IMG/VR virus record: IMGVR_UViG_3300028364_000026 | Location: 1 to 64,000 of that record | Source: a virus | Reading direction: 5' to 3' (one strand) | Length of the DNA stretch: 64,000 nt | Shown here: positions 26,626 to 28,479 of the stretch, in pieces | How the letters are laid out: each line of letters begins with the position of its first letter | Numbering within the stretch: the stretch's first letter is position 1 | The notes under the pieces: generated by a model | What the model saw: only the letters and a program-made list of their open reading frames with translations | What the model was told of the DNA's origin: nothing | Database searches by the model: none | Translations under genes and position numbers: made by a program

Positions 26626-27501
26626 TTACTTGGCTACCAACTGAACCCTTTCACTTGGGTTATCTATATATTCTATCGCATCAACATTTTGTTTAACTGC
26701 CACTAACTGAACCGCTTCACTTGGATTCGTTATATGTGTTATCGCATAACCATTTTGTTTAACTGCCACTAACTGAACATCTTCTGGTAATTCACTTGGA
26801 TTATCTATATGTTGTATCGCATGCCCATTTTGTGTCACTGCCACTAACTGAAGTTGTTCACTTGGATTCTGTATATATACTATCGCATGCCCATCTTGTT
26901 TAACTGCCTCCATCTTAACTTGTTCACTTGGGTTATCTATATATGCTATCGCAAGACCATTTTTTGTAACTGCTGCTAACTGAACCGCTTCACTTGGTGT
27001 TATATCATTTCCTATAATATGTCTTATTGCACCACCATTTTGTGTAACTGCCGCTAACTGAAGTTGTTCACTTGGATTCTGTATGAATTCTATCGCATAA
27101 CCATCTTGCTTAACTGCTGCTAACTGAACCGCTTCACTTGGGTTATCTATATATTGTATAACAAAACCATTTTCTGTAACTGCTGCTAACTGAACCGCTT
27201 CACTTGGATTCTTTACGTATTCTATCGCACCACCATTTTCTGTAACTGCTGCTAACTGAACCGCTTCACTTGGGTTATCTATATATCGTATCAAATCACC
27301 ATTTTCTGTAACTGCTGCTAACTGAACATCTTCTGGTAATTCACCATAATAATATTTAATGTACTTTACATCTTGTTTAACACTAAGTTCCATTTTTCTT
27401 AAATAAGAGGTTTTATTATTATCATTTAACTGATTAAATTGCTCTCTAGGAATTCCATTTCCAGTATTGATATACTGTTTAATTAAATCTTTATTGTTCA
27501 T
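26626..27501 (-). CDS. DUF4116-like repeat protein, paralogue P1 (10 repeats)
   Basis: constant MNNKDLIKQY.. leader plus PSExVQLAAVxxNGxAIxYIxN repeats. Confidence 0.85.
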   Translation of the reverse strand: MNNKDLIKQYINTGNGIPREQFNQLNDNNKTSYLRKMELSVKQDVKYIKYYYGELPEDVQLAAVTENGDLIRYIDNPSEAVQLAAVTENGGAIEYVKNPSEAVQLAAVTENGFVIQYIDNPSEAVQLAAVKQDGYAIEFIQNPSEQLQLAAVTQNGGAIRHIIGNDITPSEAVQLAAVTKNGLAIAYIDNPSEQVKMEAVKQDGHAIVYIQNPSEQLQLVAVTQNGHAIQHIDNPSELPEDVQLVAVKQNGYAITHITNPSEAVQLVAVKQNVDAIEYIDNPSERVQLVAK

Positions 27502-27531
27502 AATTAATTTTTATTTTGATTTGCTAAACTC

Positions 27532-28479
27532 TTAAGTAATTAAATAATTAAATTGTTCATCAGTTAATCTGTGACCCCTACCAATATATTTAGATTTAAA
27601 ATCAAATGGTAATTTCATAAACCATTTTAAATCTCCATTACTTCGACCCAATAATTGTTCCTCTTCTTTTTCACTATCTGTTTTAGGTCTATTAACCATC
27701 TTATCAACTGGAACACCATTAGATTTTAAATAACTAACATAACCATCAACATCTTTACGGTACTCAGAAATATTTCCAGTGTTATTGTCAGCATCAGTTA
27801 ATTCAATCCCGTAACGTGTACTATCAAATACAACTATGTGTAATGGGTCATTTAAATCAACACCACCGTTAGAAGTTGTTTTAAATTTATTGGTATCAAC
27901 AATGAAATAAAATGATGAATCTTTAGTATCTCTATAACTATTATACATAGTATTACCAAATTGACCAATACAAAAACCATAGTTTCTTCCAGTCAAACCA
28001 CCTTTAGTGTATTGAATACACTTTTGAATAGAGTCACCATCATAAATGTCAATTCCGTTACCAGACCATAATTTTTTAGTCTCACTCTCAAACTTTTCAG
28101 TATCCCCAACTTCAGCCTTTTTAGCATACTTACCTTCCTCACCATGAATAAACTCAGCTAACGAAATGTAATCGTTAAACTTATTATCACCTATAACTAT
28201 TTGATTATTAACAATCTGCATAGGTTTAACTCTATTCTTTAACAACAATTTATCAAAGATATTAAAATCACTTAATATTGTGTCAATATCTGTAAAACCA
28301 TTAGCATAAACAAAAGCCATAATTGGCACACTTTTTTGATTTTTTGATTCATCACCACCAGCAAATTTTGCGATAATTTCATCAGCATTCTCAACATTTG
28401 CTTTTTTTAACACACCTAACCCTTGAAGCTCTGAAGATTTAGACTCCAGTAAAAAACTATATATTTCTAAAAGTCTCAT
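27532..28479 (-). CDS. hypothetical protein, putative head-targeted, PcfJ-like central region
   Basis: N-terminal MRLLEIYSFLLE; CIQY..YGFCIG..MYNSYR..SSFYFIVD pattern; ATATTTAT motifs at 28514-28521 and 28571-28578. Confidence 0.6.
   Translation of the reverse strand: MRLLEIYSFLLESKSSELQGLGVLKKANVENADEIIAKFAGGDESKNQKSVPIMAFVYANGFTDIDTILSDFNIFDKLLLKNRVKPMQIVNNQIVIGDNKFNDYISLAEFIHGEEGKYAKKAEVGDTEKFESETKKLWSGNGIDIYDGDSIQKCIQYTKGGLTGRNYGFCIGQFGNTMYNSYRDTKDSSFYFIVDTNKFKTTSNGGVDLNDPLHIVVFDSTRYGIELTDADNNTGNISEYRKDVDGYVSYLKSNGVPVDKMVNRPKTDSEKEEEQLLGRSNGDLKWFMKLPFDFKSKYIGRGHRLTDEQFNYLIT

Follow-up and report, generated by a model that had tools for sequence, protein, structure and literature searches.

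A free-standing phage protein and five repeat-bearing neighbours as apparently separated parts of a modular protein family

The 64,000-nucleotide (nt) stretch analysed here (the window) covers positions 1 to 64,000 of the IMG/VR virus record IMGVR_UViG_3300028364_000026, a linear viral contig of 88.6 kb that is estimated to be 25% complete. Its minus strand carries an array of five paralogous genes for proteins with DUF4116 repeats, which we call heads, and within this array lies a gene for a protein of 315 amino acids (aa), here called the body, whose last residues resemble the first residues of every head. On this strand the order is four tandem head genes, a 143-nt gap, the body gene, a 30-nt spacer and the fifth head gene, P1. 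The question raised by the locus is why one protein should end much as its five neighbours begin. The first-pass annotation, made from the letters alone, had suggested that an ancestral fusion of a 'PcfJ-like' body with repeats was split, so that a single virion-targeted body could stack through a shared helical motif with any of five variable modules, and that this would explain why the start of the heads, the leader, is constant. Here we examine this proposal by computational analysis. The genome contains T4-type head genes, namely those for the Gp23 capsid protein (E 1.4e-71) and for a gp21-type prohead protease (Peptidase_S77, E 2.1e-22), and the same stretch is found in contigs of lake-water metagenome runs; the runs compared were all of DNA, and none of RNA was listed for the stretch.

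Fused relatives of the body

A search among longer proteins retrieved 55 proteins of 553–1032 aa that open with the body. Precomputed Pfam assignments place DUF4116 in the C-terminal halves of two of them, leucine-rich repeat (LRR) families in five and ankyrin families in 22, the remaining 26 matching no family; fusions of the body to the three kinds of repeat named in the first-pass annotation do therefore exist. The nine fused proteins that were read all show the same order: the body, a motif that we call A, 6–10 further residues, the leader motif, called B, and then the repeats. The consensus of motif B in the fused proteins, (K)DLIxQYVNTGxxIPEYQxxKL....KxSYLRKR, is that of the leader of the paralogues. 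The body of the window is homologous to members of this unnamed family over its full length, motif A included. Motif B and the repeats are absent from its polypeptide, the gene stopping two residues past motif A, and are encoded by P1 and the four other head genes.

The two products can be laid end to end on the fused protein P0121, in which the body is colinear with residues 1–316 (E 1.7e-107) and P1 with residues 321–585 (BLASTP, E 1e-58), the two matches lying four residues apart. Judged from this colinearity, the body and P1 are the two halves of a fused-type protein, cut between A and B, in line with the ancestral fusion and later split that the first-pass annotation had envisaged. The fused relatives (among them P0121, P0122, P0126 and P0149) come from metagenomes and viral contigs, and they bear no protein name and no Pfam family on the body. 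They have the same motif A, their motif B matches the leader, and P0121 shares the DUF4116 repeats as well. Identity of the body is 46–54% to P0121–P0139 and 33–45% to more distant fusions, which are mostly with ankyrin repeats. The difference is that body and repeats form a single polypeptide there, whereas here the chain is cut between A and B and has five alternative second halves.

The body has 333 relatives of similar length, and 337 are present in a library of representatives at 50% identity. The best 120 relatives listed are mostly 314–336 aa long and are covered to 96–100%. Among the 150 best representatives at 50% identity, 94 extend beyond motif A by more than 60 aa, 15 stop at A and 18 inside B; the other 23 escaped the regular expression used for the motif.

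Motif A and the leader motif B

The body reads from MRLLEIYSFLLE at its start to DFKSKYIGRGHRLTDEQFNYLIT at its end, and the five paralogues begin with MNNKDLIKQYINTGNGIP.EQFN.L, that is, their leaders read DLIKQYINTGNGIP.EQFN.L. This leader string is exact in three of the five; one has G at residue 19, and another I19 together with R24. Nine of 21 residues are identical between the C-terminal 21-mer of the body and the leader 21-mer. When all 348 six-frame open reading frames (ORFs) of at least 50 aa in the 88.6-kb genome were scanned (40,329 segments of 21 residues), no segment outside the paralogues matched the leader as well as the C-terminus of the body did, the runners-up sharing seven residues. 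Comparison by hhalign of a profile built from 26 body relatives with one built from 31 leader proteins aligned leader residues 5–25 to body residues 293–313 with a probability of 87% (P 4.1e-6, score 22.4–22.6). This part of the body ranked first of 49 sliding 25-residue segments, the second of which scored 12.5.

By these comparisons the likeness of A and B is real but faint. As they stand in the fused proteins, A and B are best described as two consecutive related elements of one helical adaptor, not as one motif used twice; P0125 and P0126 even contain a tandem of up to three A/B units. The statement of the first-pass annotation that the body ends in the very motif with which every repeat protein starts was thus correct as regards likeness and went too far in equating the two. 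Motif A is itself well conserved: in 26 diverse relatives of the body Y298 and Q309 never vary, and at least 90% of these relatives keep G302, L305 and F310.

Recurrence of the split in related phages

We compared 44 related viral loci with that of the window. Thirteen are cut right after A, nine are cut inside B, 17 are fused, and in five the gene ends after A and is followed by another gene. In the 13 loci cut after A, the body gene stops 2–4 residues past the motif, and at a distance of −1 to 10 nt it is followed by a gene whose product opens with M(N)NKDLIxQYVDTG; the co-occurrence of the two gene types in other phages, which the first-pass annotation implied, is thus seen at the same point and with abutting genes. 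All three frame relations are found among these 13 loci, where every head is provided with a separate start codon. In six of the nine loci cut inside B, the next ORF opens with the second half of B. The number of leader-first genes per locus ranges from one to eight. Viewed from the side of the heads, a body lies within the fetched stretch of 12 of 17 contigs with leader-first genes. What is observed directly is that the chain is split, at which point it is split, that the split recurs in related phages and that the heads have multiplied.

A layout like that of the window, with eight heads, is seen in locus L014 (2663-9900), where seven heads are followed by a body and one further head, with gaps of 3–19 nt and near-identical leaders.

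An unrooted tree of 117 bodies (FastTree) requires at least 13 changes from split to fused or back, as against 26.9 ± 1.7 changes (minimum 21) in 500 shuffles of the labels. The breadth of the fused state suggests that it is ancestral, a polarity that the tree, being unrooted, does not itself supply.

Predicted docking of the leader on the body

A complex model of the body with the leader scored 0.63 (runs 0.57, 0.63 and 0.66), the best of three controls scoring 0.00. Of 80 solved complexes 58 attained the mark used for docking, as did two of 110 mismatched pairs; these counts are approximate since our own alignments were used. At least 50% of the contacts were common to the runs, and the predicted local distance difference test score (pLDDT) of the partner was 77 or higher. 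The predicted interface joins body residues 292–315, the loop 155–168 and residue 174, beside the invariant Cys170, to leader residues 1–24 and 39–43. It holds five of the seven conserved positions of the leader (M1, L6, Y10, G14 and Q21), and on the side of the body it includes the conserved residues I155, G302, L305 and F310. Since no relative with a solved structure could be found by sequence (none at E ≤ 1), the score does not reflect recall of a solved complex. The model therefore supports binding of the leader to the body, as the first-pass annotation had proposed, in the manner of a prediction rather than of a measurement.

The body protein

The body matches no Pfam family and no PHROG family, and a sequence profile search of the PDB gave no match at E ≤ 1. 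Its structural model has a pLDDT of 86.3 overall and of 94.7 in the core, where the predicted template modelling score is 0.89; residues 2–26 form one helix of the folded domain. The core residues C170, Y182, R183, Y191, D195, D219, D229 and N232 are invariant or nearly so. Foldseek found nothing in the PDB at E ≤ 1e-3 for either the whole model (best E 0.13) or the core (best E 0.2). With VIA-align the best Z against the PDB was 5.5, for the N-terminal helices only, the core reaching 4.1 with a root mean square deviation of 4.8 over 95 residues. GNAT/MYST acetyltransferases recur among the structural matches, at levels far short of significance (Foldseek E 0.13–0.2, template modelling scores 0.18–0.29), and we do not assign the body to them. 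Six BFVD proteins matched at E ≤ 1e-3, of which four are labelled uncultured Caudovirales, one is nameless and one is an 'ankyrin repeat protein' of a Marseillevirus. At the nucleotide level, a megablast of positions 26000–32000 against phage records gave no match.

The label PcfJ, which the first-pass annotation had attached to the body, was rejected as a family assignment. Against PF14284 (gathering score 25 bits) the body gave no match at E ≤ 10 and one of 26 relatives a match at E 0.11, and a six-frame search of the genome with this family likewise returned nothing at E ≤ 10. The body profile aligned by hhalign to a genuine PcfJ protein of the related phage G007 (62.4 bits to PF14284) with a probability of 0.14%; the same test recovered the polyvalent paralogue of the core, described below, at 96%. 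Weak leads towards PcfJ are BFVD proteins named PcfJ-like at E 0.017–0.5 and an ESM Atlas cluster, ranked 28, with PcfJ on 33% of its members. A complete 321-kb relative from the same clade, G007 encodes its genuine PcfJ-domain protein (G007:C1:231274-231573; L067 394-1854) besides its body gene, and since both occur in this one genome, PcfJ and the body are separate families. PcfJ-like domains have been described upstream of the diversified region in some targets of diversity-generating retroelements (PMC5758913).

A possible role in the phage head

The N-terminal signature of the body closes with LLE-12, the Glu of which is conserved in at least 90% of 26 relatives. Expressed as M[KR]L..I[YF]...[LI].E, the signature occurs only at the N-termini of ORFs; of its 10 matches in the 44 loci and the genome, three fall on proteins of other families. 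In the window it is also found on an ORF of 198 aa (21652–22248, plus strand) that matches no Pfam or PHROG family and starts with MRLYKIFQDIILEE; two further unrelated ORFs with the signature are those in L010 and L011.

Internal proteins of phage T4 enter the head by means of a capsid-targeting sequence, and gp21 cleaves after Glu, as at ITE-6 and LTE-619 in Alt (PMC5694885). The present phage resembles T4 in possessing Gp23 and Peptidase_S77, and the N-terminal segment of the body ends in the pattern hydrophobic-x-Glu as does ITE-6 of Alt (PMC5694885), although in the structural model this segment is part of the helix of residues 2–26 in the folded domain; the diverse cargo of T4 is described as sharing only the targeting signal (PMC3012670). 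The T4 cargo differs in consisting of single chains without exchangeable subunits.

The nonamer ATATTTATA occurs 19 times in the window, compared with 6.2 ± 2.5 occurrences expected, and none of 100 shuffles reached 19. It stands mostly 20–40 nt before start codons and precedes the genes for the body, the first head, the prohead protease and a tail fibre (sites include 20254, 20277, 28513, 28570, 31382, 38057, 41645 and 50547). We regard it as a candidate late promoter element.

The core of the body recurs in a 932-aa protein encoded outside the window in the same genome (G000:C1:74673-77471, plus strand; L046:274-3072), at residues 306–458 (hhalign 96%, E 4.4e-9). This protein carries an ART-PolyVal ADP-ribosyltransferase domain (residues 18–160, E 2.6e-10) and, besides a helical region, has at its end a weak ParB-like match that contains DGHHR (E 0.018). 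Phage polyvalent proteins are described as likely to be packaged in the capsid and injected (PMC5512222), and the core links the body to such a protein with both ART-PolyVal and ParB-like parts. The body differs from polyvalent proteins in that its 315 aa hold one core domain and not at least two effector domains; the main text of PMC5512222 makes no mention of PcfJ, ankyrin, DUF4116 or leucine-rich repeats. Taken together, the N-terminal signature, the distribution of ATATTTATA and the recurrence of the core domain point to a late-made, possibly head-packaged effector, and virion targeting of the body is consistent with these data.

Proposed reassembly of the adaptor and its alternatives

The account that we favour, with moderate confidence, is that the body is a free-standing part of a modular family on which the leader of any head rebuilds the adaptor, and that it is perhaps packaged in the head and injected as an effector. 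The body belongs to a large uncharacterised family from uncultured giant T4-type phages, most members of which are single chains that run from the short N-terminal signature through a helical domain, an alpha/beta core of novel type with a Cys, and the adaptor with A and then B to a variable array of repeats, which may be of the LRR or ankyrin kind, a DUF4116 solenoid or some other set of helical repeats. In the lineage of the window the frame appears to have been cut exactly between A and B, so that the body stops after A and the repeat modules form separate genes, each starting at B, one of them (P1) directly after the body and four in the upstream tandem array. The leader of any head would pack non-covalently on motif A and the neighbouring Cys loop, thereby restoring the ancestral adaptor, and one body could serve five alternative binding modules. 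Body and heads would both be made late. The hydrophobic-x-Glu signature and the gp21-type protease would fit a body that is packaged in the head and injected, with the head selecting the target.

Several observations weigh against this account. When the 348 ORFs were searched with a plain hidden Markov model of the leader motif, the body scored no better than E 0.95. The halves of a split gene can score well in complex prediction from what has been learned of the fused chain, so the result obtained here may reflect packing of A on B within one chain. Heads need not abut the body: in L013 they lie 4.4–5.9 kb away, four of the five heads of the window sit upstream in a unit of their own, and no body is seen on five head-bearing contigs, though each of these is a fragment estimated to be 1–23% complete. 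A tblastn search against 50,697 phage records yielded one weak match, of 28% identity, to an uncultured 595-kb phage and hence no cultured relative. Neither a fold nor a catalytic signature can be recognised in the body, the best Z of its core being 4.1, and its role as an effector is therefore one that we infer. Finally, in the distant branch represented by L026 (277-4573) body and head are interleaved with tail genes in the order body, gp25 wedge (PF04965, E 1.6e-13), leader-first head and Baseplate_J (E 1.3e-8), and in L027 and L033 a gp25-like gene directly follows the body, an arrangement that would fit a role in the tail.

Some of these points speak for fission without reassembly, in which body and heads are now independent, the likeness of A and B is only a trace of their descent from adjacent helical repeats of one chain, and the heads are a repeat family that is expanding in the ordinary way. 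The remote heads of L013, the five fragmentary contigs without a body and the separate unit of four heads, which has a promoter-like motif of its own, are all in keeping with such independence. The tandem A/B units of P0125 and P0126 can be read as plain repeats, and the constancy of the leader is explained by gene conversion (see below). We nevertheless consider simple fission less likely than reassembly. The complex model passes where the controls fail and places its interface exactly on A and the leader, and it is there that the conserved leader positions fall. Moreover, the first head starts within −1 to 10 nt of the body stop in 13 loci, and the cuts recur at the boundaries of the adaptor helices and not elsewhere.

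A second alternative is that the body is a tail or baseplate accessory, anchored on the baseplate, and that the heads are exchangeable surface-binding modules, the whole forming a receptor-binding set rather than an injected effector. Besides the gene orders of L026, L027 and L033, this reading can draw on the promoter-like motif, which also precedes a fibre gene, and on a weak BFVD match to a 'structural protein' of PA5oct (E 0.026). We judge it improbable. No conserved neighbourhood was found around the bodies, as no flanking gene family occurs in more than four of 35 loci. In the genome of the window itself the only gp25-like signal (E 0.01) is about 50 kb away and no Baseplate_J was found. 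The presence of the core within a polyvalent protein with ART and ParB-like parts also argues against a baseplate component.

Heads, leaders and the spacer

All five heads pass the gathering score of DUF4116 (PF13475, 24.9 bits) with 39.4–94.3 bits (E 4.4e-10 to 3e-27), and all open with an almost identical leader of about 65 residues. DUF4116 has been modelled as an alpha-solenoid (PMC8078820). The heads differ from DUF4116 repeat proteins as defined by Pfam in that the conserved leader and the link to a body gene lie outside the family. Only 10 of the 31 leader-first heads are DUF4116 proteins, the other 21 having no Pfam family at all, and one leader therefore fronts different modules.

The DNA of the leader is 94.4–98.5% identical among the five paralogues; 15 of its 65 codons vary, eight of them only silently, and outside the leader the heads share exact stretches of up to 174 nt. 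Most of the spacer between body and P1, namely 27 of its 30 nt, duplicates the last codons of a paralogue gene (..LA[A]NQNKN and stop, one Ala codon short), and the 2-nt junction of the paralogue follows, so that the spacer reads SLANQNKN, stop and then TT; junctions of the source type lie at 30664–30700 and 30179–30215. Since both the paralogue 3' end and its junction have been copied, the spacer is a footprint of gene conversion or recombination. Because a copied paralogue junction stands before P1 and the leaders are so similar in DNA, we attribute the likeness of the five leaders mainly to concerted evolution through recent duplication and gene conversion. Across phages, the leaders residing in one genome vary freely except at about seven positions, and selection for docking would keep only these fixed. 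Docking as the cause of the constant leader, as the first-pass annotation had it, is thus not upheld for the leader as a whole.

A contig from the salt-lake run X4 carries a body gene about 98% identical to that of the window (27476–28511) and lacks 2 nt of the spacer. Upstream of its body there are 153 other letters and then the 3' part of a head like that at 30985–31107, a difference which suggests that the head array varies between strains. Several joints in the X4 contigs link different heads; those with a side shorter than 30 letters may be assembly artefacts of the repeats and were left aside.

The TAA stop codon of the body is followed by a spacer in frame with the ATG of P1 that contains a second in-frame TAA, just as the first-pass annotation described. 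The common frame might suggest covalent rejoining by recoding, in which read-through of the stop or a frameshift produces a body–P1 fusion. This explanation is very improbable and was rejected: two in-frame TAA codons stand between the genes, the 13 split loci display all three frame relations and have heads with start codons of their own, the deletion in X4 breaks the frame, and recoding could not reach the four upstream heads. As the frame is broken in X4 and differs among the split loci, its sharing by body and P1 is incidental, and the weight placed on it earlier is not supported. The least probable explanation, also rejected, is that motif A is a recombination scar, a piece of a paralogue leader captured upon insertion into the array: the adjacent spacer is indeed a captured paralogue 3' end, but motif A is conserved throughout the body family (with Y298 and Q309 invariant in 26 relatives), is also present in ankyrin and LRR fusions and in loci without DUF4116 heads, and occurs together with B in the fused proteins.

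Features of the locus

The coordinates of the features are collected in Table 1. The feature of the first-pass annotation started at 27440 and also covers the first 62 nt of P1. Elsewhere in the window, the long ORFs at 23021–25273 and 32521–34248 (both plus strand), which encode glycosyltransferase-like and PhoH-like proteins, seem by eye to contain putative intein-like inserts with blocks of the C...THN type.

Table 1. Features of the body gene and the head array (positions in the window)
Feature	Position	Strand	Description or basis
Body gene, 315 aa	27532-28479	-	ORF; helical N-terminal domain, alpha/beta core with invariant Cys170, C-terminal helical adaptor finishing in motif A
N-terminal signature MRLLEIYSFLLE, body residues 1-12, closing hydrophobic-x-Glu	28444-28479	-	Candidate capsid-targeting or propeptide segment
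Core alpha/beta domain, body residues 128-265	27685-28098	-	Conserved columns and confident model
Motif A, body residues 293-313, DFKSKYIGRGHRLTDEQFNYL, last body helices	27541-27603	-	Conservation, hhalign to leader, predicted interface
30-nt spacer between body and P1	27502-27531	-	Copied 3' end and junction of a paralogue gene
Head P1, 291 aa	26626-27501	-	Leader (motif B and following helices, residues 1-55), then DUF4116 repeats; Pfam DUF4116 E 1.8e-23
Intergenic region upstream of body gene	28480-28622	-	Two ATATTTATA copies (28513-28521, 28570-28578); candidate promoter for body and P1
Head paralogue, 221 aa	28623-29288	-	Leader and DUF4116 repeats
Head paralogue, 295 aa	29292-30179	-	Leader and DUF4116 repeats
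Head paralogue, 160 aa	30182-30664	-	Leader and DUF4116 repeats
First head paralogue of the array, 230 aa	30667-31359	-	DUF4116; preceded by ATATTTATA at 31382-31390

Implications

In the main-text literature searched on DUF4116 in phages, on PcfJ-like proteins and on ankyrin together with leucine-rich repeats in jumbo phages, no account of this family or of an arrangement with one body and many heads was found. Systems of comparable logic exist: branched tailspike sets dock by conserved N-terminal modules, and type I restriction enzymes use alternative HsdS. They resemble the present locus in having a constant partner and variable modules with a constant docking end; the differences are that there is no homology and that the docking element here would derive from the internal adaptor of a former single chain.

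A bolder and rather doubtful extension of the favoured account is a combinatorial effector system, in which a single head-packaged and injected body built around an invariant Cys, and possibly enzymatic, is armed non-covalently by whichever it encounters of a set of rapidly recombining solenoid heads. One constant subunit would in this way be aimed at many host targets, the arrangement having evolved repeatedly by cuts inside the helical adaptor. If true, phages would possess a counterpart of substrate-receptor exchange.

Hundreds of members of the body family are found in uncultured giant T4-type phages from lakes and other waters, and the family is without a relative in Pfam, PHROG or the PDB despite its confidently predicted core. 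Its fused and cut forms coexist and thus constitute a natural split-protein experiment, in which the cut arose or reverted at least 13 times; in the cut forms the body stays single, and it is the binding modules alone that have multiplied. If the predicted docking is correct, a phage could widen or change its targets by shuffling small repeat genes while leaving the constant part untouched, and the pair formed by the leader and motif A would be a ready-made small heterodimerising tag. The family also offers a testable handle on the function of DUF4116, LRR and ankyrin proteins in phages.

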